DNA of 37,383 nucleotides from a virus (lineage: Duplodnaviria > Heunggongvirae > Uroviricota > Caudoviricetes), in the IMG/VR virus record IMGVR_UViG_2778261303_000009, one strand, 5' to 3'. Each line of letters starts with the position of its first letter. The first letter of the stretch is position 1. This document shows, piece by piece, positions 1 through 37,096 of this stretch. Below the pieces are notes generated by a model that did no database searches, was not told where the DNA came from, and was given only the letters and a program-made list of their open reading frames with translations. The position numbers and the translations under genes were made by a program.

Positions 1-1053
1 TTACGGGGTAATGCCAACCGCTGCCGCCACTTTGTCGCCACTTGGCAGCGTTGCCAGAGGATTGAAACGGAGCGCCGTTTCCAGATGGTCCGGTGCCAGA
101 TGTGCGTAACGCATAGTCATTTTTATATCGTGGTGTCCGAGAATTTTTTGTAAGGCCAGAATGTTTCCACCCGACATCATGAAATGCGCCGCAAACGTAT
201 GGCGCAGAACGTGTGTCAGTTGACCGCGAGGGAGCACGATAGACGTTTTTTCCATCACGGATAAAAATTGAAAATAGCAGTCTGTGAAGAAATTGAACCC
301 ATCAAGCGCCATGATCTCTTCGTAAAGCTCTTTACTGATAGGGATGCTTCTGTTTTTCTTCCCCTTCGTTCTTACAAAGGTAATTCGGTATTTGGTCACC
401 TGTGAGCGGGTAAGATTTACGGCTTCTCGCCAGCGTGCGCCTGTGCTTAAGCATATTTTGACTACCAGAGCCAGAATTGGGTCCTGACGTTTGCAATCAG
501 CCAGCAGTTCAACAATCTGCTCATGGGTAAGCCATGCCATCTCTTTTTCTGCGATGGTGAATTTTCGCATGTTCTCCAGTGGGTTCGGATACGACCATTC
601 GCCCAGGCGGGATAGTTCGCTAAAAACACTACTTAGATAGCTTTGCTCCAGGTTAATGGTGACCGGGCTGGCTCCTTTCTTCCATTTCTCGCTGAAGTAG
701 ATCTCACCTGTCAGTCGTTTATCTCGATAATGGGCAAACATTTTAGATGTGAGATCGGTTGCAAGGGGATTGCCCAGAGCGTCAACCATCAGCAGCAATT
801 TGTCATAGACATGCTGCCCAGCAGTCAGAGATTTACCATGTAGTTTGAACCATAGCTCAACCACGTCTTTCAGGGTTCGACGATCCACTGATTCGCCCAG
901 CCAGGGCTTTGATTCGGTTTCTTCCATCGTGTGACGCTCAAAAGCAAGAGCTTCGCCTTTGGTGGCGAATTGTTTACGCACACGACGCCCACTACGTCCG
1001 GCGGGGTAACATTCGCAAAGCCATTTTCCTGTGGTGAGTTTTCGTACTGCCAT
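1..1053 (-). CDS. int: Tyrosine integrase, P2/186 family
   Basis: Minus-strand ORF with N-terminus MAVRKLTTGKWLCECYPAGRSGRRVRKQF and C-terminal catalytic region (HVLRHTFAAHF...MRYAHL). ATG at 1051..1053 is preceded by a GGAGGG RBS; the stop codon is bases 1..3 of the window. Confidence 0.9.
   Translation of the reverse strand: MAVRKLTTGKWLCECYPAGRSGRRVRKQFATKGEALAFERHTMEETESKPWLGESVDRRTLKDVVELWFKLHGKSLTAGQHVYDKLLLMVDALGNPLATDLTSKMFAHYRDKRLTGEIYFSEKWKKGASPVTINLEQSYLSSVFSELSRLGEWSYPNPLENMRKFTIAEKEMAWLTHEQIVELLADCKRQDPILALVVKICLSTGARWREAVNLTRSQVTKYRITFVRTKGKKNRSIPISKELYEEIMALDGFNFFTDCYFQFLSVMEKTSIVLPRGQLTHVLRHTFAAHFMMSGGNILALQKILGHHDIKMTMRYAHLAPDHLETALRFNPLATLPSGDKVAAAVGITP
19..40. repeat. Left copy of putative att core (cgctgccgccaCtttgtcgcca), inside the 3' end of int
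   Basis: 22-bp direct repeat with one mismatch to 34529..34550, which lies immediately after the ogr stop codon. Position matches the P2-family arrangement ogr-attP-int. Confidence 0.5.
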
Positions 1054-1239
1054 AAAAAATACCCTCCAGTGGAGAGTATTTTTGCTGTATATATAACCAG
1101 TGTCAATGTATGAAATCTTGCGACCATACATCTCACTGAAGCCATAATGAAGTTGGCTATTTTTTGCTATGTGAGTATGTGACTTTTGCGGTTAGCCTGC
1201 GGCTCATTGTTATATTAGGCGCAGATATAAAAGCAAAAA

Positions 1240-3946: not shown

Positions 3947-4800
3947 GCACCATCCTGAAATGGGCGGGAAATAAAACCGCCATAATGTCCGAACTGAAAA
4001 AGCATCTTCCTGCTGGCCCGCGACTGGTTGAACCTTTCGCGGGTTCCTGTGCAGTGATGATGGAGACGGATTACCCCAGCTATCTTGTTGCGGATATTAA
4101 TCCTGATTTAATCAACCTCTATAAAAAGGTTGCTGCTGATTGTGAGGCGTTTATATCTCGTGCCAGAGCTTTATTTGAGGAAGCAAACAGGGAGGTGGCT
4201 TATTACAACATAAGGCAGGAGTTTAATTACTCCACTGAAATTACTGATTTCATGAAAGCGGTATATTTTCTGTATCTCAATCGTCATGGTTACCGTGGGT
4301 TATGTCGCTATAACAAGAGCGGGTATTTCAACATTCCCTACGGTAATTATAAAAATCCGTATTTCCCTGAAAAAGAAATTCGCGCATTTGCAGAGAAAGC
4401 CCAGCGGGCAACGTTTATCTGCGCCAGCTTTGATGAAACGCTGGCGATGTTGAAGGTGGGGGATGTGGTGTATTGCGATCCGCCTTATGACGGTACGTTT
4501 TCCGGCTATCACACTGATGGCTTCACTGAAGATGACCAGTATCACCTGGCATCCGTTCTTGAACATCGATCATCTGAAGGTCATCCGGTCATTGTTTCTA
4601 ACAGTGACACATCCCTGATTCGTTCGCTGTATCGCAATTTCACTCACCACTACATCAGGGCAAAACGCAGCATCGGCGTGTCGGCTGGCGAGAGTAAATC
4701 TGCAACAGAAATCATTGCTGTTTCCGGGGCGCGCTGCTGGGTGGGATTTGATTATTCGCGTGGCGTGGATAGTTCTGCCGTGTACGGAGTACGTGCATGA
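3943..4800 (+). CDS. dam: DNA adenine methyltransferase (Dam-like, D12-class N6-MTase)
   Basis: N-terminus [11 protein letters not shown] with FAGSCAV SAM-binding motif and catalytic DPPY motif (VYCDPPYDG). GGAGG RBS upstream; stop overlaps the A start (ATGA). Confidence 0.85.
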
Positions 4801-7208
4801 GCCATGCCGATATGAACAACTGCTGCGGCTTTAACGAGGCTGCCGCAGCGTTCTCATGGAACAGCCCGAAAAAGGCCATTAACCCTTATCTGGACCCGGC
4901 GGAAGTTGCGCCGGTTTCTGCGCTTTCAAACCTGATCACTCTGTACGCTGCCGATAACGAGCAGGAACAGTTGCGCCGCGAGGCACTGAGTGATCAGGTC
5001 TGGGAGCGTTATTTTTTTAATGAATCACGTGATCCTGTCCAGCACGAAATGGAGCAGGATAAGCTCATTAGCCGGGCAAAGCTGGCGCATGAGCAGCAGC
5101 GTTTTAATCCGGATATGGTCATTCTGGCGGACGTCAACGCCCAGCCTTCCCATATCAGCAAGCCGCTGATGCAACGTATTGAATACTTCAGCAGCCTGGG
5201 CAGGCCAAAGGCTTATTCCCGCTATTTACGTGAGACGATTAAGCCATGTCTGGAACGACTGGAGCATGTACGCGACAGCCAGCTATCTGCATCTTTTCGT
5301 TTTATGGCAAGCCATGTAGGGCTGGACGGCCTGCTGATTCTGCCTGAAATGAGTCAGGATCAGGTGAAACGCCTGTCTACCCTTGTCGCTGCGCATATGA
5401 GCATGTGCCTTGATGCAGCTTGTGGTGATTTGTATGCCACCGATGACGTTAAGCCAGAAGAAATCCGCAAGACATGGGAAAAGGTGGCAGCAGAAACCCT
5501 GCGACTGGATGTTATCCCGCCTGCGTTTGAGCAACTCCGCCGGAAAAGAAACCGCCGTAAACCCGTGCCCTATGAACTCATTCCGGGTTCGCTGGCGCGT
5601 ATGTTGTGCGCCGACTGGTGGTACCGGAAATTATGGAAGATGCGTTGCGAATGGCGGGAAGAGCAGTTGCGTGCTGTTTGCCTGGTCAGCAAAAAAGCAT
5701 CTCCCTATGTCAGCTATGAAGCCGTGATGCATAAACGTGAGCAGCGCCGTAAGTCGCTGGAGTTTTTTCGTTCTCATGAACTGGTGAACGAAGACGGCGA
5801 CACGCTGGACATGGAGGATGTGGTAAACGCCAGCAGCAGCAACCCTGCGCATCGCCGCAATGAGATGATGGCCTGTGTTAAAGGTCTGGAGCTTATCGCG
5901 GAAATGCGCGGTGACTGCGCCGTTTTCTACACCATCACCTGTCCGTCACGTTTCCATTCCACGCTAAATAACGGCAGGCCCAACCCGACCTGGACAAATG
6001 CGACAGTAAGACAAAGCAGTGATTATCTGGTCGGCATGTTTGCTGCATTTCGTAAGGCAATGCATAAAACCGGGCTGCGCTGGTATGGCGTGCGGGTGGC
6101 TGAGCCGCACCATGACGGTACTGTGCACTGGCATCTCATGTGTTTCATGCGCAAAAAAGACCGCCGCGCCATTACTGCATTGTTGCGTAAGTTTGCCATC
6201 CGTGAAGACCGCGAGGAGCTGGGCAATAACACGGGGCCACGCTTTAAGTCTGAGCTGATAAACCCGCGCAAAGGAACGCCGACAAGCTACATCGCGAAAT
6301 ACATCAGTAAGAACATTGACGGACGTGGTCTGGCTGGCGAGATCAGCAAGGAAACGGGTAAATCCCTGCGTGATAACGCCGAATACGTTAATGCCTGGGC
6401 GTCTCTGCATCGTGTTCAGCAGTTCCGCTTCTTTGGTATTCCGGGGCGTCAGGCTTACCGTGAACTTCGCTTGCTGGCTGGTCAGGCGGCAAGGCAACAG
6501 GGTGACAAAAAAGCAGGTGCGCCAGTACTGGATAACCCGCGCCTTGATGCCATTCTGGCTGCTGCTGATGCTGGCTGTTTTGCCACCTACATTATGAAGC
6601 AGGGCGGTGTACTGGTTCCCCGTAAATATCACCTCATCAGAACCGCTTATGAAATCAACGAAGAGCCGACCGCCTATGGCGATCACGGTATTCGTATTTA
6701 TGGCATCTGGTCACCCATTGCAGAGGGCAAGATCTGCACTCATGCGGTGAAGTGGAAAATGGTTCGTAAGGCCGTTGACGTTCAGGAGGCGGCAGCCGAC
6801 CAGGGCGCTTGCGCCCCTTGGACTCGTGGCAATAACTGTCCCCTTGCTGAAAATTTGAACCAACAGGAGAAAGATAAATCAGCTGATGGGGACACCAGAA
6901 CGGACATTACCCGCATGGATGACAAGGAGTTGCACGATTACCTGCACAGTATGAGCAAAAAAGAGCGCCGGGAACTGGCTGCAAGGTTACGTCAGGTGAA
7001 ACCGAAACGGCGTAAAGACTACAAACAGCGAATTACAGACCATCAGCGACAGCAGCTCGTCTATGAACTGAAGTCCAGGGGATTTGATGGCAGCGAGAAA
7101 GAAGTCGATTTGCTCCTTCGCGGTGGCAGTATTCCGTCAGGAGCAGGCCTGCGTATCTTCTATCGGAACCAGCGTTTGCAGGAAGATGATAAGTGGCGAA
7201 ACCTGTAG
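4797..7208 (+). CDS. A: Replication initiation endonuclease (P2 gpA / rolling-circle Rep family)
   Basis: 803-aa ORF with an HUH-like motif (TVHWHLMCF) and a double-tyrosine active-site motif ([10 protein letters not shown]) characteristic of P2 A-type replication proteins. Confidence 0.9.
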
Positions 7209-8010: not shown

Positions 8011-8526
8011 ATGCCTGGGTTAGAAAATGCACAGCAAAATCAAGTTGATGAAATCGTTCCAGCAATGCAAATCGCATTGGTCGAAGAAGATATAGAACAA
8101 CCCATCGCTGCCGAATACCTATACAGCCAGCATATAAGTGCGCTTGTGCCACAATGCCCTCCTGCCGAAGCGACAGAGTGCGATAGAGAATGCTGGCGTT
8201 TTACACTGAATCCTATAAGTCACAACTGCTTTTGGCCTCCAAAAAGAAGATCACCGCAGCGAATTGCTTCCGACGATGCGGAGGAGTGTTCTATGTGGGC
8301 GTTGTCTATGTATGAATCAGAGGCCCAGGCTACAAGAGCCTATACCATGTTAGCGAAGAAGATGAAAAATATCAGAAAAGCTATTGGTGATCACCTTGCT
8401 GTGGGTTCAGTAACCTGTAGTGATGGTAAATGTATGCCTGCTAGCAGAACCGGTCACTTTGATTTTCATCCTTATGTGGATGCGGATTTCGTTAACGGGT
8501 TCCAAGTAATACGAGCATTACCATGA
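8011..8526 (+). CDS. Cargo protein 1 (171 aa, no recognised domain)
   Basis: ATG at 8011 behind an AAGGAG RBS, after an AT-rich promoter-like spacer. First gene of a co-directional three-gene block; stop overlaps the next start (ATGA). Confidence 0.6.
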   Translation: MPGLENAQQNQVDEIVPAMQIALVEEDIEQPIAAEYLYSQHISALVPQCPPAEATECDRECWRFTLNPISHNCFWPPKRRSPQRIASDDAEECSMWALSMYESEAQATRAYTMLAKKMKNIRKAIGDHLAVGSVTCSDGKCMPASRTGHFDFHPYVDADFVNGFQVIRALP

Positions 8527-9614
8527 TAAAATTAGATGCTAGAAGAATAAATGCGTCAACTGTCGGAGATTATTCTTGGTACTCTGACCTCGTATATTTC
8601 GATGGTCCCCTAATTTGCTTGTTTAGAGGAAGCGGATATAAAGATGCTCTTTATGTCTGGCTCGATAATTCGGAGCGTGCCAATCGTTGGTGCTTGATTC
8701 CAGTATCAAGATCTACTTTGGACTCTTATCTTAACCAAAGAATGAGTTTAAGGGAGATTATACAATCGAGCGAATATACATATATCTGCGATCATTTTGC
8801 GGAAACAGGAAGGAAGCACTACAACATTTTGCACGTTGATAGTTTTCCTGAGGAGTATATGCCTGATGAAGATTCATATTTGTATGAAGAAATATGTACT
8901 GATGATGCATTGCTGTTGAAGCAGGAGCGCACCTCCAGTTATATGCTTGGATTAGATAATCAGTTGTTTATAAATGATTTATCTGTAATACCAAAAATTT
9001 TCGAACAGCTCTATTCTTTCCATTACGGATTGGCTCATTTAGGACGGTTGTCGATTAGAAATACCATGTTGCGTCTGATGGGGAATTGGACGGGTGGAAT
9101 ATCAGCAGTAAATATATTTTCAGGGTTGAAAAATGTTATTCCTGTTTTGCATCGACCAGAGATTAGCTCTCTCCAATACAATTCACCGGGGCATATTGAG
9201 TTAAATTTACTTCCTGATTTGGCTCAAAGTGTTCAAGATGCATCTATTCGTGTGAAAAGTGAGCTAGTTTATGACCGTCTGGAGAAAATGTATAAAAATA
9301 CATATGCATACTTCAAGGATAATGGGCTGTCAGGCTTTGATGAAGACGGCGGCATTGAAATTAGAAATATCGATAGTGATACCACCGAAAACCTACGTAA
9401 ACGCGTAAGAATATTTTTTAGATGTTTGGGGTGGTCAAGTTATCAAGCTCAGTTTGATCTGATCGGTGCCCATCCTCTACAACAATTACGTGCTGTGATG
9501 GCCTACTACAGGCGGCTCAAAATCTTGCGTGAATACATTGTCTCCGAGAAGCTTTTTGTTGGTCAGTCTCGGCTGTTACAGCAGCCACAAATTGCTCTGC
9601 CTCCTGAGGATTAG
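8523..9614 (+). CDS. Cargo protein 2 (363 aa, no recognised domain)
   Basis: Translationally coupled to protein 1. AT-rich codon usage unlike the flanking phage genes. Confidence 0.65.
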   Translation: MIKLDARRINASTVGDYSWYSDLVYFDGPLICLFRGSGYKDALYVWLDNSERANRWCLIPVSRSTLDSYLNQRMSLREIIQSSEYTYICDHFAETGRKHYNILHVDSFPEEYMPDEDSYLYEEICTDDALLLKQERTSSYMLGLDNQLFINDLSVIPKIFEQLYSFHYGLAHLGRLSIRNTMLRLMGNWTGGISAVNIFSGLKNVIPVLHRPEISSLQYNSPGHIELNLLPDLAQSVQDASIRVKSELVYDRLEKMYKNTYAYFKDNGLSGFDEDGGIEIRNIDSDTTENLRKRVRIFFRCLGWSSYQAQFDLIGAHPLQQLRAVMAYYRRLKILREYIVSEKLFVGQSRLLQQPQIALPPED

Positions 9615-9631: not shown

Positions 9632-10972
9632 ATGAATCCGCATGATCGTTTGAGGATCGTTCTAGATGAGGCCCGCCAGCAATGGCGGGCTTTTGCTAAT
9701 GTCATGCTGGCGCATGAAAACCGCTACATAAAGTGGGCAGGCGTGGCGGGGATACGATTGCGCGCTTATTCCAAAACGGCAATAATTAACTTTTCAAAAC
9801 ATCTACCAGGAAAGACAATGCTTATCTGCGAAGACCATATCGTCGAACCAAACGTAAAAAATCATGTTCGTCTGCAAACTGACAACAACATTTGTGTGTT
9901 TTGTAATGCTGTTACAAAATGCCTAGATACTGATTCGATAGAAGCTCGAAATTTGCTAAAAGCAATCTTACGTTATAACTTTGATGAAGTTCTCTATAAT
10001 ACACATATTGGTGGTGACTATTTCCCAGGTTTTTTATTAGCAGATGATTATATATTTTGCAGGGATATCCAAAGTTACGCTGAAGCATTTACTGATCTTG
10101 ATAGTGAAATATGGAGTATGGGGTTCACAACTGCAGGTGAGATTGATATACATTCAGGACATGATCAAGATGGCATGATGAATATGCCGCTTATGTCAAT
10201 TATTAACTCATATCATCCATTTATAGGAAAATTATCTAAGAAACTTGCTGAAGTAAATTACCATGAGTTTGAAGATGAATTGAGGGATATCATTAAAGAT
10301 TATGGGAATTCTTTTGCCAAAATAATTGAGGGTGGTTCTGTAGTTTATCGTGCTCGCGTAGGGACTGCTGGTTATAAAAAAGCTCATGAAGATTTTAACT
10401 ATGAAGGGAAGAAAATATTCGTTCCATACAAAAATAAAGAAATAGGTTCTGTTCCTCCTCTTAAAGCAACGGCAGGTAGAGCTAATAGAGTCGGGGTTTC
10501 ATACTTATATTGCGCGACTGATAGCTATACAGCGATCGCTGAGGTGAGACCTCATCCTACAGATGTAGTTTCTTTAGGTAAATTTAGCGTATCGCGAGCT
10601 TTAAAAGTATTCGATTTTTCATATCCAAACTTATTAGACTTTATCGAAAATGGCGATACTTTATTGAGAATGATTCCTTACGCTAAAATGGCGGGTATTT
10701 ATAATACCGCTACACCCCCCTCTTTGGAAGGAAGGTATAGTGTTTCGCAGCTCATATCTGACTGCATAAGAAAGGAAGGATACGATGGCATACAGTTTTC
10801 AAGCACTGTTGGTGAAGGGAAAAATTTAGTTGTGTTTAATCCTAGTTACATGGAATTTATTGAGGGGAGTTCAACGGTAATTGAAATTGACAAGGTACAA
10901 TATACATACAAAGAAAAACAAGTAGTAGGGATGAATGATCAGTGGGAGATTTATTATAATGAAGTTGAATAG
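9632..10972 (+). CDS. Cargo protein 3 (446 aa): N-terminal Cys/His-containing region plus C-terminal RES-like domain
   Basis: C-terminal half carries RES-domain-like motifs: VVYRARVG, then AGRANRVGVSYLYCATDSYTAIAEVRPH (GRxN...LYxA...AxxE), then GYDGIQFSSTVGEGKNLVVFNP (DGIxxxS...N.VVF). The start codon is uncertain because the RBS is weak. Confidence 0.65.
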   Translation: MNPHDRLRIVLDEARQQWRAFANVMLAHENRYIKWAGVAGIRLRAYSKTAIINFSKHLPGKTMLICEDHIVEPNVKNHVRLQTDNNICVFCNAVTKCLDTDSIEARNLLKAILRYNFDEVLYNTHIGGDYFPGFLLADDYIFCRDIQSYAEAFTDLDSEIWSMGFTTAGEIDIHSGHDQDGMMNMPLMSIINSYHPFIGKLSKKLAEVNYHEFEDELRDIIKDYGNSFAKIIEGGSVVYRARVGTAGYKKAHEDFNYEGKKIFVPYKNKEIGSVPPLKATAGRANRVGVSYLYCATDSYTAIAEVRPHPTDVVSLGKFSVSRALKVFDFSYPNLLDFIENGDTLLRMIPYAKMAGIYNTATPPSLEGRYSVSQLISDCIRKEGYDGIQFSSTVGEGKNLVVFNPSYMEFIEGSSTVIEIDKVQYTYKEKQVVGMNDQWEIYYNEVE

Positions 10973-15865: not shown

Positions 15866-16516
15866 ATGAGCCTGAGTCCCGCACGGCAGCATCGCCTGCG
15901 CGTTCAGGCTGAACAGTCCGCCCGTGAGGGCGGCAGTGTTCGCCATGCGTCGGGCTATGACCTGATGCTGCTGCAACTGGCGGAAGACCGCCGCCGTCTC
16001 AAGGGCGTTCAGTCCACGGTCAAAAAAGCGGAAATCAAGGTGGAGCTGCTGCCGAAATACGCCGCCTGGGCAGAGGGTGTTCTGACTGCCGGAGGCGCTC
16101 AACAGGATGACGTGCTGATGTACGTGATGCTGTGGCGCATTGATGCCGGAGATTATGCCGGGGCGCTGGAGATCGGGCGTCATGCCCTGCGTCATGGCTG
16201 GGTGATGCCGCTGGGTAACCGCAATGTGCAAACCGTGCTGGCAGAGGAAATGGCAGACGCGGCACAGAGCGCAATGCTTGCCACTACCGGCTTTGATGTC
16301 GATCTGTTGCTGCAGACGCTGGAGCTGACAGACGGTCTGGATATGCCGGACCAGTCACGGGCACGTCTGCATAAAGCGATTGGCGCTGTCCTGCGTGAAA
16401 GCAATCCGGCTTCCGCCCTTAATCATCTCAACCATGCGTTACAGCTCGATCCCCGCTGTGGCGTGAAAAAAGACAAACAGCAGCTGGAGCGCAGACTGCG
16501 CAATGACAGCCGCTGA
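15866..16516 (+). CDS. M: Terminase small/endonuclease subunit (P2 gpM-like)
   Basis: 216-aa ORF resembling P2 gpM (LLPKYAAWAEGVL...DDVLMYVMLWRIDAGDYAGALEIG). Confidence 0.85.
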   Translation: MSLSPARQHRLRVQAEQSAREGGSVRHASGYDLMLLQLAEDRRRLKGVQSTVKKAEIKVELLPKYAAWAEGVLTAGGAQQDDVLMYVMLWRIDAGDYAGALEIGRHALRHGWVMPLGNRNVQTVLAEEMADAAQSAMLATTGFDVDLLLQTLELTDGLDMPDQSRARLHKAIGAVLRESNPASALNHLNHALQLDPRCGVKKDKQQLERRLRNDSR

Positions 16517-16611
16517 CAGAACGTGCCCCCGCGCACGGGCGGCACGGGGTGGCGAAAGGCACTGTCACATCAAAACCCCGTCCACCGCCCTTTATTTCAG
16601 GAGAAAGCAGC

Positions 16612-17076
16612 ATGAAGTTTGTTGCGCCAGAACAGGCACCGGAACAGGCGGAAATCATCAGAAATACGCCGTTCTGGCCTGATGTGGACCTGTCGGAGTT
16701 TCGCAGCGTGATGCGCACTGACGGCACGGTGACGCAGCCGCGTTTAAAGCAGGTTGCGCTGTCGGCAATTTCGGAGGTCAACGCAGAGCTGTATGAGTTT
16801 CGCAGACGCCAGCAGATGCTGGGGTATGCCTCGCTGGCAGAGGTTCCGGCGGAACAGCTGGACGGCAAAAGTGAGCGCATTCAGCACTATTTCAACGCGG
16901 TTTACTGCTGGGCACGCGCCATGCTCAACGAACGTTACCAGGACTATGACGCCACGGCGTCCGGTGTGAAGCGGGGCGAGGAACTGGCGGAAGCAAGCGG
17001 TGATTTGTGGCGTGACGCCCGCTGGGCCATCAGCCGGGTGCAGGATGCGCCGCACTGCACAGTGGAGCTTATCTGA
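16612..17076 (+). CDS. L: Head completion/stabilisation protein (P2 gpL-like)
   Basis: ATG at 16612 preceded by an AGGAG RBS; the ORF-track upstream extension lacks an RBS. Confidence 0.8.
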   Translation: MKFVAPEQAPEQAEIIRNTPFWPDVDLSEFRSVMRTDGTVTQPRLKQVALSAISEVNAELYEFRRRQQMLGYASLAEVPAEQLDGKSERIQHYFNAVYCWARAMLNERYQDYDATASGVKRGEELAEASGDLWRDARWAISRVQDAPHCTVELI

Positions 17077-17279
17077 TGAAAGTGCGAGCGCATCAGTATG
17101 ACACGGTGGACGCGCTTTGCTGGCGTCATTACGGGCGCACGCAGGGTGTCACGGAGCAGGTACTGAAGGCAAATCCGGGGCTTGCCGAATTTGGCCCCTT
17201 TTTACCTCACGGGCTGCAGGTGGAGCTGCCGGACATTCCGACCACCACCACCGTGCAGACCGTCCAGCTATGGGACTGA
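17076..17279 (+). CDS. X: Tail protein X (P2 gpX-like)
   Basis: 67-aa ORF whose start overlaps the L stop (TGATG). Sequence HQYDTVDALCWRHYG... is typical of gpX. Confidence 0.8.
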   Translation: MKVRAHQYDTVDALCWRHYGRTQGVTEQVLKANPGLAEFGPFLPHGLQVELPDIPTTTTVQTVQLWD

Positions 17280-17282
17280 ATT

Positions 17283-17498
17283 ATGACGCTTGAGCGAATC
17301 AGCGCCTTTATCACGTATTGCATCGCCGTTGTGCTGGCCTGGCTGGGCGATTTGTCCATCAAGGATGCCTCAACGCTGGGCGGCCTGATGATCGGTGTGC
17401 TGATGCTGGCTATCAACTGGTACTACAAACACAAAGCCTACCAGCTTCTGCGCGACGGGCAGATCTCGCGGGAGGACTATGAATCCATCAATCGTTAA
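17283..17498 (+). CDS. Putative holin
   Basis: 71-aa ORF with two hydrophobic segments and a charged C-terminus, immediately upstream of the endolysin. Confidence 0.55.
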   Translation: MTLERISAFITYCIAVVLAWLGDLSIKDASTLGGLMIGVLMLAINWYYKHKAYQLLRDGQISREDYESINR

Positions 17499-17994
17499 AC
17501 GCTGCCTTGTCGGGGCCGTGCTGGCTATTGCTGCCACGCTGCCGGGGTTTCAGCAACTTCACACCTCCGTGGAGGGGCTGAAACTGATTGCCGATTACGA
17601 AGGCTGTCGTCTGCAGCCGTATCAGTGCAGCGCGGGTGTCTGGACCGACGGCATTGGTAATACGTCGGGCGTCATTCCCGGCAAAACTATTACGGAACGA
17701 CAGGCAGCAGAAGGGCTGATCTCCAACGTGCTACGTGTGGAGCGGGCGCTGGAAAGGTGTGTGAAGCAACAGCCGCCGCAGAAGGTGTATGACGCTACGG
17801 TGTCGTTTGCCTTCAACGTGGGGACGGGCAATGCCTGTAGTTCCACGCTGGTGAAATTGCTCAATCAGCGGCGCTGGGCGGATGCATGCCGACAGTTGCC
17901 GCGCTGGGTTTATGTGAAAGGTGTTTTTAATCAAGGGCTGGATAACCGCCGTGCGCGGGAGATGGCCTGGTGCCTTAAAGGAGCTGGACTATGA
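17479..17994 (+). CDS. SAR endolysin (T4-lysozyme-like muramidase with N-terminal signal-anchor-release domain)
   Basis: N-terminal hydrophobic Gly/Ala-rich segment (CLVGAVLAIAATLPG), then an E-x8-C-x5-T catalytic triad variant (YEGCRLQPYQCSAGVWT). GGGAGGA RBS upstream. Confidence 0.8.
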   Translation: MNPSIVKRCLVGAVLAIAATLPGFQQLHTSVEGLKLIADYEGCRLQPYQCSAGVWTDGIGNTSGVIPGKTITERQAAEGLISNVLRVERALERCVKQQPPQKVYDATVSFAFNVGTGNACSSTLVKLLNQRRWADACRQLPRWVYVKGVFNQGLDNRRAREMAWCLKGAGL

Positions 17995-18419
17995 CACGTG
18001 CGCTGGCGGTAGTGGCGGCGCTGGCACTCGTTGCGCTGGGCTGGCAGTCGTGGCGGCTTAACAGCGCCAGCCACACCATCGAAACGCAGCGCGCGGCGCT
18101 GAAAAGTAAAGCGCACGAACTAACGAAGAAAAATAGCCAGCTGATCAGTCTGTCCATTCTGGCTGAAACCAACAATCGGGAGCAGGCGCGGCTCTACGCC
18201 GAAGCAGAACAGACCAGTGCACTGCTGAGACAACGACAACGCCGGATTGAGGAACTGAAACGTGAGAACGAGGATTTACGCCGCTGGGCTGATACTCCTT
18301 TGCCTGCTGACATTATCCGGCTGCGGAAACGTCCGGCATTCACCGGAGGTGCAGCTTACCGTCAGTGGTTGTCCGCGAGTGACGCCGTGTCGGCTGGATC
18401 AGGCAACGCCGCGCACTAA
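17991..18419 (+). CDS. lysB: Inner-membrane spanin (Rz/LysB-like)
   Basis: 142-aa ORF with an N-terminal TM segment and coiled-coil-like periplasmic domain; start overlaps the endolysin stop. Confidence 0.7.
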   Translation: MTRALAVVAALALVALGWQSWRLNSASHTIETQRAALKSKAHELTKKNSQLISLSILAETNNREQARLYAEAEQTSALLRQRQRRIEELKRENEDLRRWADTPLPADIIRLRKRPAFTGGAAYRQWLSASDAVSAGSGNAAH

Positions 18420-18552
18420 CGGTGATCTGAACGCATTGCTGGATGAAACGGAGGCCGCCTGGGCGGTCTGTGCAGACAAAGTGGACATGATTATTGCGTG
18501 TCAGGAGCGAAACAGTGAACAAACCACAATCCCTGCGCCACGCCCTCAATAA
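18262..18552 (+). CDS. lysC: Outer-membrane lipoprotein spanin (Rz1/LysC-like), overlapping lysB out of frame
   Basis: GTG start at 18262 behind a GAGGA RBS. Signal peptide ending in lipobox LSGC, then a proline-rich mature region. Begins inside lysB as in P2. Confidence 0.65.
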   Translation: MRTRIYAAGLILLCLLTLSGCGNVRHSPEVQLTVSGCPRVTPCRLDQATPRTNGDLNALLDETEAAWAVCADKVDMIIACQERNSEQTTIPAPRPQ

Positions 18553-18946
18553 AGCGGTGCCTTATGTCCGCAATAACCCGGACAAACTGCATCTGTTTGT
18601 GGATAACGGTTCGCTGGTTGCTACGGGGGCCAGCTCCATGTCATGGGAGTACCGTTACACCCTGAACGTGGTGATTGAGGATTTCAGCGGCGACCAGAAT
18701 CTGTTGATGGCCCCGGTTTTATTGTGGCTGCGGGATAACCAGCCTGATGCCATCAATAACCCGGCGTTACGGGAAAAGTTATTCACCTTTGAGGTGGATA
18801 TTTTGCGCAACGATGTCTGTGATATCAGCCTTAACCTGCAACTGACGGAGCGTGTGCTGGTCAGCACTGACGGCAGTGTGTCGAGTGTTGAAGCTGTAGA
18901 GGAACCCGATGAACCTGAAGAAATGTGGACGGTGAAACGTGGCTGA
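18515..18946 (+). CDS. R: Tail completion protein (P2 gpR-like)
   Basis: Likely GTG start at 18515 behind an AGGAG RBS. Sequence (FVDNGSLVATGASSMSWEYRYTLNVVIEDFSGD...) matches gpR as recalled. Confidence 0.75.
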   Translation: MNKPQSLRHALNKAVPYVRNNPDKLHLFVDNGSLVATGASSMSWEYRYTLNVVIEDFSGDQNLLMAPVLLWLRDNQPDAINNPALREKLFTFEVDILRNDVCDISLNLQLTERVLVSTDGSVSSVEAVEEPDEPEEMWTVKRG

Positions 18947-19385
18947 ATTGCAGAAGGTGGACGACTGGCTGAGTGCCTTGCTGGCGAATCTGGAGCCAGC
19001 CGCAAGAAGCCGCATGATGCGCCAGCTGGCGCAGGAACTGCGCCGGACACAGCAGCAGAATATCAGGATGCAGCGCAACCCTGATGGCAGCAGTTATGAA
19101 CCGCGCAGGGTAACAGCACGCAGTAAAAAAGGCCGTATCAAACGGCAGATGTTTGCAAAGCTGCGCACCACAAAATACCTGAAAACCGCCGCCAGCGCGG
19201 ATTCTGCCAGCGTGCAGTTTGAAGGTAAGGTGCAGCGTATTGCCCGTGTTCATCACTACGGCCTGCGCGATCGCGTCAGTCGCAAAGGACCGGAGGTCCG
19301 TTATGCAGAGCGTCGCCTGCTGGGTGTAAATGATGATTTATACTTTTTAACACGACGCATTTTATTGCAATGGTTGGCGAGGTAG
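18939..19385 (+). CDS. S: Tail completion protein (P2 gpS-like)
   Basis: GTG start overlapping the R stop. Sequence RNPDGSSYEPRR... is typical of gpS. Confidence 0.75.
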   Translation: MAELQKVDDWLSALLANLEPAARSRMMRQLAQELRRTQQQNIRMQRNPDGSSYEPRRVTARSKKGRIKRQMFAKLRTTKYLKTAASADSASVQFEGKVQRIARVHHYGLRDRVSRKGPEVRYAERRLLGVNDDLYFLTRRILLQWLAR

Positions 19386-19442
19386 AGTTGGTTGACTTTT
19401 TGTAGTTCCTACTCTAACCTCACCGATTGATTTTAGGTTATA

Positions 19443-21197
19443 TCAATCCCAAAATAAATTATTATTAATATTGCTCATATCGAAAGTGAAGTTCTTTTCT
19501 GTAATAGTTTCGTACCTTTGTTCATAGATTATTTTTACATATCTAAACCCCTGTGTTACAGAGCGAATTTTTCGGGGTTTTGATGCAAGCATAACAAGTA
19601 TTTCAAATACTTTATCAAGATAGTTGTGGGTGTGTTCAACTAAAAGGGGGGTAAATTTACCACCTTTTCCAGAATGGACTATGTTATTTCTTGTTCTATA
19701 AATTCTTCTGAGTTGCCATTCTAATCTTAACTTATGGTTATCTAAAGTTGATTTAATTGACTCCGGGGATGAAACTATGTTTTTTATATACTCGAAACGA
19801 TCTGAAAGCAATGTGTAATCACGAAATTTAGCGGATAAAGATTCCCTTACTGATTCGTATTCAGGAAGAATCATTATATTGGCTAGTTTGTGTTTCGCTT
19901 TTGCTCCAGGTATTCCTTTTAAATGTGAGTTTAGCATGTGCCTATTCCATAACAGCAGGTCTCGAGTAAGGTTGTCAATTAAGGAGTCTATATATGTAAT
20001 ATTCAGGAATGGAATTATACTTGCAGTAATATGTTCTATTGTTGCTTGATCCTTGGATTTAGTGTCTGTCGGCACTAATGATTCAAGAGCTATCCATAGA
20101 TTTAAAAGCTGATTTTCAACATTTTCACTTTTTAATGCCATTGAATGTAATTGAATACTTCTCAAGAACTTGGCAAATGAACTATTTTCTAGAGAAAACT
20201 CAGACATCAATGATTCAAGACGTTTCTTGGCCTTTTCATGCTTTAAGTCCTTGCATTTTTTCATGGGGTTAAGTCTTTCAGCCACTTTCAAAGAGTCTGT
20301 ATCAGTTATAACGAAAGCTTCATTTGACCAAGTAGGTTTATCTTTATGATGATAAATATTTAAAAAGGATGATGCTAATTTAAGTAGGTTTTCAGCATTC
20401 TCTCTTGCTGAATAAGAATCAAAAGCTTCTATATTTGATACGCAAACTATCTTCTTTCTTTGCAGATTTCTAAAAAAAACATGTTGGGAAAATTCTTCTG
20501 GTGGTTCTTTCTCAACAGACAAAGAGAGTCTTTCGAAAGTTGGCTCGGCGCCTAAAAACACTGGTTCAACAATAAAATATATTTTGTATTTCTTTTTTTC
20601 GAGTTTTATTAAATCAAAAAAAGAAGAGACATCAGTGTTATTTGAGATTTTATTATTCCCATAATAAAAAAATTGCTGGGTTAAATTCTTAAGATTATGT
20701 TGGCTAAAGCCAATGTAGAGTAATAAGCTGATATAATTTCTTGTTAGCTTGCGTATGATGCTTCTTTCCCAGTTTGGGGATGATAACTCTTGGGTGATAA
20801 GTTCTTCACTTTTTTCTTTATATAATTTGGGTGGTAATTGAATGACCAGCATTTCAATTATTGAGCTTCTCTCTTTAGGGCTTATGTTAGTATTTTTTAG
20901 TTTGTTGAGAAAAGCTTGGTAAGCATCGCCTAATAAATGTTGTGCTACTTTATCACATGACAAGTTATGTATTAATTCTGCGGTTAAATGTTCAATATTT
21001 TTAGGCTGAATAATACCATCCTCAACATCTTTAATTGTATTTAAAGTTTCTATTCCAATTGTTGGGGTATTCATCACTGAGGGTTTGTATGTGTCCAGTG
21101 TATAGTCAAATAGCATTTCATCCAGTAATTGCGCAAAATATACTAGTGCTTTACAAGTGTCTGGGCAATCCCATTTATACAAAGAACGAAATTTCAT
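19443..21197 (-). CDS. Cargo protein (584 aa) with C-terminal HEPN-type RNxxxH motif; candidate abortive-infection RNase
   Basis: Very AT-rich ORF antisense to the late operon, between S and V. Near the C-terminus, LEWQLRRIYRTRNNIVHSGKGG contains RNNIVH (R-N-x3-H), encoded at 19674..19691. Confidence 0.65.
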   Translation of the reverse strand: MKFRSLYKWDCPDTCKALVYFAQLLDEMLFDYTLDTYKPSVMNTPTIGIETLNTIKDVEDGIIQPKNIEHLTAELIHNLSCDKVAQHLLGDAYQAFLNKLKNTNISPKERSSIIEMLVIQLPPKLYKEKSEELITQELSSPNWERSIIRKLTRNYISLLLYIGFSQHNLKNLTQQFFYYGNNKISNNTDVSSFFDLIKLEKKKYKIYFIVEPVFLGAEPTFERLSLSVEKEPPEEFSQHVFFRNLQRKKIVCVSNIEAFDSYSARENAENLLKLASSFLNIYHHKDKPTWSNEAFVITDTDSLKVAERLNPMKKCKDLKHEKAKKRLESLMSEFSLENSSFAKFLRSIQLHSMALKSENVENQLLNLWIALESLVPTDTKSKDQATIEHITASIIPFLNITYIDSLIDNLTRDLLLWNRHMLNSHLKGIPGAKAKHKLANIMILPEYESVRESLSAKFRDYTLLSDRFEYIKNIVSSPESIKSTLDNHKLRLEWQLRRIYRTRNNIVHSGKGGKFTPLLVEHTHNYLDKVFEILVMLASKPRKIRSVTQGFRYVKIIYEQRYETITEKNFTFDMSNINNNLFWD

Positions 21198-21213
21198 TTT
21201 TGTTATTCCATAT

Positions 21214-21231
21214 TGTAAGACCGCTCATACA
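21214..21231. promoter_or_regulatory. TGT-N12-ACA dyad (late-activator site) upstream of V
   Basis: TGTAAGACCGCTCATACA lies 47-64 bp upstream of the V ATG and 17 bp from the start of the divergent cargo gene. Confidence 0.35.
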
Positions 21232-21277
21232 AATACATATGTTTTAAGATAAATGCAAGATGTTGAATCATTGCCCT

Positions 21278-21856
21278 ATGAACGCACAACTTACCGAAAT
21301 CATGCGCCTTATCACCAACCTGATCCGCACTGGGGTAGTCACCGAAGTGGACCGGGAACACTGGCTTTGTCGGGTGAAAACGGGCGACCTTGAAACCAAC
21401 TGGATTAACTGGCTGACACTGCGCGCGGGCAAATCGCGCACCTGGTGGAAACCGTCTGTGGGCGAGCAGGTTGTGCTATTCAGCCTGGGTGGCAATCTGG
21501 AAACCGCGTTTGCCCTACCTGCTGTCTACTCAAATCAGTTTCCACCACCTTCTGACTCTGAGGACGGCAACGTGGTTGAGTACCCGGACGGTGGCAGGTT
21601 TGAATACGAACCCGCCACCGGGCGCTGGTATGTCAGGGGCATCAAATCTATGGTCATTGAGGCTGCCGACAATATCACCCTGAAAACCAGTGAGTTTGTA
21701 CTGGAGGCTGACCGCACACGCATTAACAGCGAAGTAGTGATCAATGGTGGTGTTACCCAGGGCGGCGGTGCAATGAGTTCTAACGGAATTGTGGTTGATG
21801 CACATCAGCATACTGGCGTCCTGAAAGGCGGTGACACAACCGGAGGCCCGGTATGA
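21278..21856 (+). CDS. V: Baseplate spike/assembly protein (P2 gpV-like)
   Basis: Aligns with the P2 gpV N-terminus (MN...IRTG...WLTLRAGKSRTWWKPSVGEQV). An alternative in-frame ATG lies at 21260. Confidence 0.8.
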   Translation: MNAQLTEIMRLITNLIRTGVVTEVDREHWLCRVKTGDLETNWINWLTLRAGKSRTWWKPSVGEQVVLFSLGGNLETAFALPAVYSNQFPPPSDSEDGNVVEYPDGGRFEYEPATGRWYVRGIKSMVIEAADNITLKTSEFVLEADRTRINSEVVINGGVTQGGGAMSSNGIVVDAHQHTGVLKGGDTTGGPV

Positions 21857-34763: not shown

Positions 34764-36449
34764 TTATCCTAATCCTGGCCATACCATGACGATGATTGTC
34801 CCTGCCAGCGTCAGCAGGACGTTGGCGATTGCATAGGTGCCCGCATAGCCCAGCGCCGGGATGTTACTGCGAGCTGTATCACTGATGATCTCCATTGCCG
34901 GCGCGCAGGTACGTGCGCCCATCATTGCGCCGAACAACAGCGCGCGGTTCATTCGCAATACATAAGCACCGAACAAGAAACAGATAACCACGGGCACCAG
35001 ACTGACAATCAATCCGGCAATCAACATCTGACCGCCAATCGCGCCCAGGCCGTTATTAATACCGCTACCGGCGCTCAGACCAACGCCTGCCATAAACACC
35101 ATCAAGCCGAACTCTTTCACCATGCTTAATGCACCCTGCGGAATGTAACCGAAGGTCGGGTGGTTAGCACGCATAAAGCCCAGCATAATTCCGGCGAATA
35201 ACAACCCGGCAGCGTTCCCCATGCCGAAACTGAATGTGCTGAACTGGAAGGTGATCATCCCGATCATCAGCCCAATAACAAAGAAGGCGCAAAATGCCAG
35301 CAGGTCAGTGACCTGGCTGTGAATCGAGATAAAGCCGATGCGATCGGCGATGGTTTTTACGCGACGGGCATCACCGCTGACTTGTAAAACGTCACCTTTG
35401 TTAAGCACGACGTTGTCATCTATCGGCATCTCAATCTGGCTACGAATGACGCGGTTAAGGAAGCAACCGTGATCGGTCAACTTCAGTTGTGCGAGACGTT
35501 TACCTACAGCGTTATGGTTTTTAACGACCACTTCTTCAGTGACGATACGCATGTCGAGAAGGTCACGATCGAAAACTTCTTTACCGTTACGGAAGCTGGG
35601 ATCGAGTCGGGCATGGGCGTCGGGATAGCCTACCAACGCTATTTCATCGCCCATTTGTAGCACGGCATCACCGTCTGGATTTGCCAGAATCCCGTTACGT
35701 CGAATACGTTCAATGTAGCAGCCGGTTTGTCGATAAATACCCAGTTCACGCAGATTTTTGCCGTCGGTCCAGGCCACCAGCTCCGGGCCGACGCGATAGG
35801 CGCGGATCACCGGTAAATAAACCTTACGGTTGGCATCAGTGTCCAGGCCACGTTCGCGGGCGATTTGCTGGGCGCTGGTCTGTAAGTCCTGATGCTGCAA
35901 TTTCGGCAAGTAACGCGCACCAACAATCAAACTCACCAGACCGATTAAATAGGTTAAGGCATACCCGAGGCTCAGATTATCCAGTGCCAGTGAGAGCTGC
36001 CTGCTTTCCATGCCGGAATGACGCAGTGTATCGCCAGCACCGACCAGAACCGGTGTCGACGTCATAGAGCCTGCTAACATACCGGCCGTCAGGCCAATAT
36101 CCCAGCCAAACAGCTTACCTAACCCTAAGGCGATCACCAGCGCACTGCCAACCATCACCAGTGCTAACATTAGGTAATTTTTCCCATCGCGAAAAAAAAT
36201 GGAAAAAAAGTTCGGTCCGGCTTCAACCCCAACACAGAAAATAAACAGCATAAAGCCAAGATTAAGCGCATCGGTGTTAATGCTGAAATGTTGTTGGCCT
36301 AATAACAGCGATACGACTAAAACGCCAATGGAATTACCCAGTTGGATCGAACCAAGTCGTAACTTTCCGAGACATAGCCCAAGCGCGAGGACCACAAATA
36401 ATAACAGAATGTAATTCCCATTTAACAATTCGGCGACGTTTATATTCAC
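34764..36449 (-). CDS. ybjL: Putative transport protein YbjL (AAE-type transporter with two RCK_C/TrkA-C domains)
   Basis: 561-aa membrane protein, N-terminus [42 protein letters not shown] matches E. coli YbjL as recalled. Synteny with ybjM and grxA. Confidence 0.85.
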
Positions 36450-36718: not shown

Positions 36719-37096
36719 GTGAAACATAAACAACGTTGGGCGGGGGCAATCTGCTGTTTTGTCCTCTTCATTGTGGTGTGCCTTTTTCTGGCGACGCACA
36801 TGAAAGGCGCTTTTCGGGCTGCCGGGCATCCTGAAATCGGCTTGCTATTTTTCATTCTTCCTGGAGCAGTCGCCAGCTTCTTTTCACAGCGTAGAGAAGT
36901 CCTGAAACCTCTGTTTGGCGCAATGCTGGCGGCACCCTGTTCGATGCTCATTATGCGGCTGTTTTTTTCACCGACGCGCTCATTCTGGCAAGAGCTGGCA
37001 TGGTTATTAAGTGCGGTGTTCTGGTGTGCGCTGGGGGCACTGTGTTTCTTATTTATCAGTAGTTTGTTTAAACCACAGCACAGAAAAAATCAGTAA
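36719..37096 (+). CDS. ybjM: Inner membrane protein YbjM
   Basis: 125-aa hydrophobic ORF with a GTG start behind an AGGAGG RBS, between ybjL and grxA as in E. coli. Confidence 0.75.
   Translation: MKHKQRWAGAICCFVLFIVVCLFLATHMKGAFRAAGHPEIGLLFFILPGAVASFFSQRREVLKPLFGAMLAAPCSMLIMRLFFSPTRSFWQELAWLLSAVFWCALGALCFLFISSLFKPQHRKNQ

Follow-up and report, generated by a model that had tools for sequence, protein, structure and literature searches.

The window analysed here, a stretch of 37,383 nucleotides taken at its whole length, is a P2-like (Peduoviridae) prophage with the gene order N, M, L, X, holin, endolysin, LysB, LysC, R, S. It raises the question of which type of lysozyme stands between X and LysB, and by what means that enzyme could be held inactive until lysis. 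The initial annotation had read the gene as a signal-anchor-release (SAR) endolysin and not as a P2 K-type enzyme, citing a weakly hydrophobic N-terminal segment and a cysteine in place of the catalytic aspartate of T4 lysozyme. Our comparisons suggest that the gene is the endolysin of this P2-like prophage and quite probably a SAR endolysin of the P1 Lyz type. This reading draws its support from homology and comparison, namely the match to P1 Lyz, a set of three cysteines, the fold and the composition of the lysis module. Table 1 lists the features concerned.

Table 1. Features of the lysis module and of the endolysin gene, in window coordinates
Feature	Position	Strand	Description
Gene X	17076..17279		P2-like late operon, 5′ of the holin gene
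Holin (candidate pinholin)	17283..17498	+	71 aa; two predicted TMDs (~I6-G22, L32-Y48), charged C-terminus
Endolysin gene	17479..17994	+	Predicted SAR type, 171 aa, GH24 / T4-lysozyme-like muramidase; intact ORF, ATG start, TGA stop
Predicted signal-anchor-release segment	17497..17550	+	K7-R8, then C9-F24 (CLVGAVLAIAATLPGF); from hydropathy and composition against P1 Lyz and RrrD/R21
C9 codon	17503-17505		First residue of the segment
Catalytic motif E41-G-C43-x6-C50-x5-T56	17599..17646	+	Aligned with P1 Lyz E42/C44/C51/T57, HP1 Lys, T4 E11/D20/T26
E41 codon	17599-17601		Triad Glu
C43 codon	17605-17607		Two residues past E41
C50 codon	17626-17628		Triad Cys
T56 codon	17644-17646		Triad Thr
LysB, i-spanin (Rz-like)	17991..18419	+	142 aa, N-terminal TMD; TIGR03495 phage_LysB E=5e-52; phrog_89
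LysC, o-spanin (Rz1-like lipoprotein)	18262..18552	+	Lipobox L-S-G-C; NF038368 P2_Rz1 E=2.9e-36; PF23793 E=6e-16

The lysozyme gene lies where the initial annotation had placed it. A GGGAGG Shine-Dalgarno sequence is found directly 5′ of the open reading frame, which overlaps the preceding holin gene by 20 nt and the start of lysB by 4 nt (ATGA), and the encoded protein opens MNPSIVKRCLVGAVLAIAATLPGFQQLHTSVEGLKLIADYEGCRLQPYQCSAGVWTDGIGNT... The protein matches PF00959 (Phage_lysozyme) across profile positions 2-125 of 125 (E=4.5e-40, 137.3 bits against a cutoff of 22.3), and this match contains YEGCRLQPYQCSAGVWT, which has the reported form E-x8-C-x5-T with E41, C50 and T56 as its fixed residues. 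The triad definition used here, E-x8-(D/C)-x5-T, is that of PMC3556154. Since the motif sits within the PF00959 match and aligns with the catalytic columns of P1 Lyz and T4 lysozyme, it is not a chance occurrence. C50 falls in the column of T4 D20 and P1 C51, which bears out the claimed replacement of Asp by Cys. Profile, triad and fold all place the protein among the GH24, T4-lysozyme-like enzymes. From the alignment, C50 is predicted to be the catalytic cysteine at the Asp position and C43 to be a caging cysteine. The initial annotation, which cited the catalytic cysteine alone, had overlooked C43 as well as C9 in the N-terminal segment.

The neighbouring genes were examined for the type of lysis module to which this enzyme belongs. 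The holin scores above the cutoff for the HP1-family holin profile (PF16080, 36.7 bits against 28.8) and below that for the P21 holin S profile (PF04971, 23.2 bits against 26); it also matches the phrog_20 holin group (E=1.9e-26), and its orthologues carry the PGAP label 'HP1 family phage holin'. Judged by the PF16080 score and its two hydrophobic segments, the protein is assigned to the HP1 family of holins. A dual-start motif was sought in the holin and is absent. Pairwise BLAST gave no similarity to LydD of P1 or to HP1 Hol (E=0.19), nor to S21. The first TMD of the holin exceeds the SAR-like TMD1 of S21 in hydrophobicity. HP1 Hol, the founder of PF16080, behaved as a pinholin (PMC7312051), and the holin of the window is a candidate pinholin or else a canonical class II holin.

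Downstream, LysB is 36% identical to P2 LysB over 76 residues, and lysC begins within lysB and extends beyond it, an overlapped spanin architecture. The lysis module of the window has no lysA, and a scan for promoters and terminators from 16400 to 21400 returned nothing above shuffled expectation. A P2 K-type enzyme was rejected, the best local BLASTP alignment to P2 gpK having E=0.016 over 24 residues. The initial annotation was thus right to set the K type aside; the enzyme has no meaningful similarity to gpK, and its partner is an HP1-family holin instead of P2 Y. Replacement of the Y/K pair of P2 in the window amounts to an exchange of modules within Peduoviridae, a mosaic family given that 186 has the K type, and the P2-like lysis module is best viewed as a swappable cassette, with Y/K in P2 and 186 and an HP1-type holin with a putative SAR lysozyme in the window.

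The N-terminus of the endolysin reads M-N-P-S-I-V-K7-R8 followed by C9-LVGAVLAIAATLPG-F24. The stretch C9-F24 consists of 16 uncharged residues, among them two Gly, four Ala and one Thr (7 G/A/T) and one Pro (Pro22), and is followed by a polar linker that reaches E32. We summed a per-residue membrane-insertion scale, that of Hessa et al. 2005 in approximate values, over windows of 15-21 residues, and the resulting hydrophobicities are approximate. On this measure C9-F24 scored lower in hydrophobicity than every other segment in the comparison, which took in the P1 Lyz and RrrD/R21 SAR domains together with segments from the window's own holin, LysB and LysC. Such low hydrophobicity fits a weak, releasable anchor. 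The weakly hydrophobic SAR segment claimed for this protein is borne out by hydropathy and composition set against P1 Lyz and RrrD/R21; a positive charge precedes a segment rich in Gly/Ala/Ser/Thr that is weakly hydrophobic and of TMD length, albeit at the low end of that length. The SAR endolysin of HP1 has an uncharged stretch of 16 residues, the same length as C9-F24 (PMC7312051). Counterpoints to an anchor are the shortness of the stretch (16 residues, with Pro22) and the presence in it of A16-I17-A18, a possible signal-peptidase site.

In an AlphaFold2 model built from a 28-sequence alignment (pLDDT 92.9, pTM 0.88), residues 11-30 are placed with high confidence (pLDDT 93-96) as a pair of short helices (11-18 and 22-26), with no single long TM helix, packed on the globular body. 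The top Foldseek matches of the model were 1XJT, 4ZPU, 3HDE and other GH24 endolysins. The entry titled 'active form of P1 phage endolysin Lyz' (1XJT) gave a TMq of 0.85 over 173 aligned columns, full-length R21 / RrrD a TMq of 0.78, and the 'secreted inactive form' of P1 Lyz without its SAR domain (1XJU) a TMq of 0.57. The model thus predicts a soluble state in which, as in P1 Lyz after release, the N-terminal segment folds back against the enzyme.

We aligned the endolysin with P1 Lyz, the enzyme of phage EtG, a Lyz103-like enzyme, RrrD/R21 and T4 lysozyme. The P1 Lyz query matches 1XJT exactly over residues 1-185, from which the positions C13/E42/C44/C51/T57 follow, and the R21-like query is the same sequence as DLP12 RrrD and nearly the same as R21. 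In this alignment C43 corresponds to P1 C44 and C50 to P1 C51, and both the window endolysin and EtG have an N-terminal cysteine, with C9 corresponding to P1 C13. All three of these cysteines of the window endolysin recur in HP1 Lys. Against the two SAR enzymes that the initial annotation had named as references, P1 Lyz shares the catalytic Cys and R21/RrrD keeps the Asp. A cysteine in the N-terminal segment, one at E+2 and the catalytic one together define the disulfide-isomerisation switch of P1, and by alignment the window endolysin possesses all three. In P1 Lyz the disulfide is reportedly C44-C51 while the enzyme is tethered and C13-C44 once it is released, in the work of Xu et al. 2005.

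These cysteines are stable among close relatives. All seven cysteines of the endolysin are kept in 120 close homologues, with E41, C43, C50 and T56 essentially invariant; C9 is found in 116 of the 120 and C43 in 119, and loss of C165 is confined to database entries that are frameshifted at the C-terminus. One homologue (P0091) carries C43G and retains C9 and C50, so that caging is not universal among close homologues. An odd number of cysteines is what three disulfides and a single free catalytic thiol would give. The missing C43 in that one homologue would suit a SAR endolysin whose inactivity is purely conformational, as in R21, with its cysteines having structural or catalytic roles and no disulfide isomerisation, an arrangement that we consider unlikely for this enzyme. 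R21 and DLP12 RrrD resemble the window endolysin in combining a SAR domain with a GH24 domain, the model matches them at full length, as given above, and C9, unlike P1 C13, stands at the very N-terminal limit of the anchor. The regulation of R21/RrrD is described as conformational and not as disulfide-based. Both proteins, however, retain the catalytic Asp and lack Cys both at E+2 and within the SAR domain, whereas the window endolysin, P1 Lyz and HP1 Lys have Cys at all three positions, and the three co-occur across lineages.

That co-occurrence comes from a survey of homologues, in which 150 representatives at 50% identity were collected and those with a recognisable motif classified; the representatives are mutually related, so the counts that follow are supportive and not a formal statistic. 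An N-terminal hydrophobic segment, a catalytic Cys and a Cys at E+2 were found together in 22 representatives, every one of which also has a Cys in the segment (22/22). These correspond to about ten distinct lineages, the remainder being fragments of the window's own family, and the Cys invariably occupies the N-terminal portion of the segment (KRC, KLC, AAIC, SAVC, AGIC, GSAC, GGSC, KTC). Neither of the two Asp-type representatives with a segment has such a Cys (0/2), and the single representative with a segment and a catalytic Cys and without the E+2 Cys has one in a lipoprotein-like L-Y-A-C motif (1/1). A further 81 representatives are without an N-terminal hydrophobic segment (29 C/C, 29 C/x, 8 D/C and 15 D/x).

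The proposition that a catalytic Cys implies a SAR enzyme was rejected, as most soluble homologue representatives (58/81) carry the catalytic Cys too. The catalytic Cys by itself is therefore no SAR marker, being common in proteins that have no N-terminal hydrophobic segment. The initial annotation was correct that this variant is known among SAR endolysins, P1 Lyz being an example, and the further step, to SAR-type lysis, does not follow from the catalytic Cys alone. It is the three-Cys combination, unlike the catalytic Cys alone, that appears to mark SAR enzymes, and the survey counts are supportive of this.

The same counts bear on whether the protein could be a soluble endolysin of the cytoplasm dependent on a canonical large-hole holin, its N-terminal segment being a structural part of the globular fold. 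A catalytic Cys, and even EGC...C, is common without a segment, and the segment here is short, the least hydrophobic of those compared and packed on the body in the AlphaFold2 model. The arrangement of K-R, 16 uncharged hydrophobic residues and a polar linker is, however, the standard layout of a type II anchor, common to P1 Lyz and HP1 Lys, both of which are experimentally exported. Covariation of the N-terminal Cys with the caging pair is restricted to TMD-bearing proteins, seven conserved cysteines suit a periplasmic and not a cytoplasmic protein, and the founder of the partner holin's family behaves as a pinholin. We hold a soluble cytoplasmic enzyme to be most improbable.

Retention of C9 in nearly all close homologues, and an N-terminal Cys alongside the C43/C50 pair in every TMD-bearing representative of that class, also argue against a cleavable Sec signal peptide, removal of which would take C9 with it and leave a soluble, processed lysozyme secreted to the periplasm. 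The N-terminus does have the look of a signal peptide, with an n-region (K7-R8), a short hydrophobic core and A16-I17-A18/A19 fitting the -3/-1 rule; A-x-A is frequent at the same position in relatives, and SignalP called the N-terminus of HP1 Lys a signal peptide (PMC7312051). Yet hydrophobic residues run on beyond the A-x-A (TLPGF), only about seven residues would be left for the h-region, and the model builds residues 11-30 into the fold and matches full-length active P1 Lyz, while the P1 Lyz construct from which the SAR domain is missing was deposited as the secreted inactive form. Taken together, these observations make a cleaved signal peptide very unlikely.

Each computational test that we applied agrees with a SAR endolysin, as the initial annotation had proposed, and the P1 Lyz type is our preferred reading. 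From analogy with P1 Lyz and HP1 Lys we infer how export, tethering without cleavage, the disulfide states and a pinholin trigger might be combined in this enzyme. SAR endolysins are exported by Sec, tethered, and freed upon pinholin triggering (PMC9239132, PMC9025707), and the definitive test of such an enzyme is release by a pinholin and lysis without a canonical holin (PMC9239132). In P1 Lyz, the SAR domain of which undergoes modification by the Dsb system of the periplasm (PMC9239132), the catalytic Cys is locked in a disulfide until activation (PMC3556154). Experiments on the hol/lys pair of HP1 identified a pinholin and a Sec-dependent SAR endolysin (PMC7312051).

On this model the endolysin would be made from the late operon, and K7-R8 with C9-F24 would engage Sec and serve as an uncleaved type II signal anchor, so that the muramidase domain would be periplasmic and tethered to the inner membrane. 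In the tethered enzyme the periplasmic Dsb system would link C43 to C50, occupying the catalytic Cys and holding the enzyme inactive, and C9, at the cytoplasmic end of the anchor, would be unreachable. Triggering of the two-TMD HP1-family holin, probably a pinholin, would collapse the membrane potential, and the weak anchor would exit the bilayer. The freed segment could then fold back on the enzyme body, where C9 would attack the C43-C50 disulfide to give C9-C43 and free C50. The active muramidase would degrade murein, and the LysB/LysC spanin would next disrupt the outer membrane.

A more specific proposal, which we put forward tentatively and think possible but doubtful, is that the cassette is a minimal version of the P1-type switch with a geometry of its own, partnered by an HP1-family holin acting as a pinholin. 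The anchor is short and contains Pro, and the switch Cys stands at the cytoplasmic boundary, right after K-R. At that boundary C9 might stay reduced and inaccessible as long as any of the segment was still in the membrane. The holin, for its part, is not detectably similar in sequence to any of S21, LydD and HP1 Hol, and the cassette has neither an antiholin nor LysA. Were the proposal true, it would point to a distinct, uncharacterised pinholin lineage and to a variant placement of the activating thiol.

The endolysin is very common and is already known, annotated and described. The cassette is 97.4% identical in nucleotide sequence to that of Escherichia phage Cartapus (Peduoviridae, Elveevirus), whose endolysin (YP_010663982) is 99.4% identical to that of the window and stands in the same X-holin-endolysin-lysB/lysC-R-S context. 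The same context surrounds the 98% identical Klebsiella phage protein KP12.peg.319, although KP12 has an extra gene for a 125-aa LysA-like membrane protein between endolysin and lysB that is absent here and in Cartapus. KP12.peg.319 has been described as similar in structure to P1 Lyz (TM-align 0.83), modelled on 1XJT and having a conserved SAR domain; it was assigned to a P2-type cassette with overlapped spanins, purified and reported lytic in a spot test (PMC9902359). The primers printed for it in that paper match neither the KP12.peg.319 locus nor the window, and the lytic assay is therefore weak support.

Matches to the cassette also extend to dozens of P2-like phages of Klebsiella, Escherichia and Salmonella and to 1038 of 5426 complete E. 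coli genomes (~19%, about a fifth), where the PGAP labels are 'lysozyme', 'HP1 family phage holin', LysB and LysC. Clusters of the endolysin protein have thousands of members across Enterobacteriaceae. Proteins of 296 aa that appear to fuse the endolysin to PF28015 were read as assembly errors, since their frameshifts fall at differing positions and their clusters have a single member, and endolysin chimeras of 288-549 aa were read as prophage decay. The finding matters little beyond correct annotation, the usual label being 'lysozyme' or 'endolysin' despite the full three-cysteine signature of P1 Lyz. In recombinant antibacterial lysin work of the kind undertaken for KP12, uncaging of the catalytic Cys probably requires C9 and the N-terminal segment, and truncated or signal-peptide-bearing constructs may therefore be inactive.

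Among known lysis systems, the pairs of P2 (gpK with holin Y) and 186 (P) share with the window the slot between X and lysB in a P2-like late operon. P2 gpK, however, is without an N-terminal hydrophobic segment, and the 93-aa holin Y has weak similarity to the 71-aa holin of the window. The Lyz103 type of phage ERA103, represented in our comparison by phiEa100 lyz, is a SAR lysozyme regulated by Cys near the catalytic Glu, as the title of Kuty et al. 2010 indicates. In that type C-E-G-C flanks the Glu and the catalytic residue is Asp, whereas the window endolysin has Y40 before E41 and a catalytic Cys; caging of the Lyz103 type was rejected for the window enzyme on these two grounds.

HP1, likewise of the Peduoviridae, also has a small two-TMD holin gene without a dual start that overlaps the start of a SAR lysozyme gene, and its Lys shows the EGC...C motif, an N-terminal Cys and the 16-residue uncharged stretch. 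HP1 Lys is nevertheless 35% identical to the window endolysin, the two holins have no significant pairwise similarity, and the HP1 cassette follows the tail tube gene whereas that of the window lies between X and R.

P1 Lyz, the founding or prototype SAR endolysin, is the best match in both sequence and fold and the closest relative of solved structure (1XJT, E=2e-26). The two enzymes share the GH24 fold, a near-identical catalytic motif (EGCR..PY.C.AGVWTDGIGNT), the catalytic Cys, the Cys at E+2, a Cys in a weakly hydrophobic N-terminal segment and a total of seven cysteines. They differ in that identity is just 35-39%, that the SAR segment of the window is shorter, Pro-containing and less hydrophobic, and that its switch Cys opens the segment (C9) whereas that of P1 lies several residues inside (C13). 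P1 Lyz also has an insertion of ~11 residues past the NVG motif that is missing from the window endolysin, and its gene belongs to a lyz-lydD-lydE operon, whereas the enzyme described here is encoded in a P2-like late operon beside an HP1-family holin.

In the relatives KP12, 500465-1 and 4LV2017, a gene for a 125-aa LysA-like membrane protein (phrog_162, PF28015) sits between the endolysin gene and lysB. It is cleanly missing from this junction in the window and in Escherichia phage Cartapus, and in both the endolysin stop codon overlaps the lysB start codon in an ATGA, located at 17991-17994 in the window.

Many single-member clusters among the database homologues (P0006-P0049 and similar, 296 aa) look like fusions of the endolysin with the LysA-like protein. 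Upon inspection of these database proteins, the junctions proved to be frameshifts close to the endolysin C-terminus. Because these frameshifts differ in position from one entry to another, the apparent fusions are most likely assembly errors. Other odd entries, alongside which P0051, P0121 and P0122 are listed, are chimeras of the endolysin with tail genes, arising from prophage deletions.

For the KP12 endolysin, KP12.peg.319, the cloning primers printed in PMC9902359 match neither the KP12 locus nor the window. The methods of that paper give a KP12.peg.319 forward primer identical to the KP1 forward primer, and the primers as printed may be a typographical error.

Coordinates of features in the window and in related loci (L006, KP12; L002, another relative)
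Feature	Position	Strand	Basis or remark
Integrase	window 1..1131	-	left edge
PD-T4-10 A match	window 8011..8526	+	PADLOC, E=1e-75
PD-T4-10 B match	window 8523..9614	+	PADLOC, E=1e-172
446-aa protein, C-terminal RES domain	window 9632..10972	+	PF08808, E=2.9e-18
584-aa ORF	window 19443..21197	-	PADLOC ApeA, E=1.2e-12
Asp-Al_Ex/TrkA_C permease, host-type	window 34764..36449	-	right end
ybjM, host-type	window 36719..37096	+	right end
KP12.peg.319 gene	L006 1204..1716
LysA-like gene in relatives	L006 1718..2095; L002 1918..2295		compared with window 17991-17994 junction

Both prophage ends are discernible within the window. Two mutually overlapping ORFs, which make up a PD-T4-10 A/B defence system, lie with replication gene A (4797..7208) on one side and the portal/terminase genes on the other; the RES-domain gene follows directly 3′, and its product matched nothing in the PADLOC search. 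The 584-aa ORF, lying between gpS and the baseplate genes, has a GC content of ~32% (versus ~58% in its flanks). While its product had zero matches in Pfam, PHROG and NCBIfam, residues 336-534 matched the PADLOC ApeA model (E=1.2e-12); the ORF probably represents a cargo gene for defence against phages. Its slot is that occupied by orf30 in P2.
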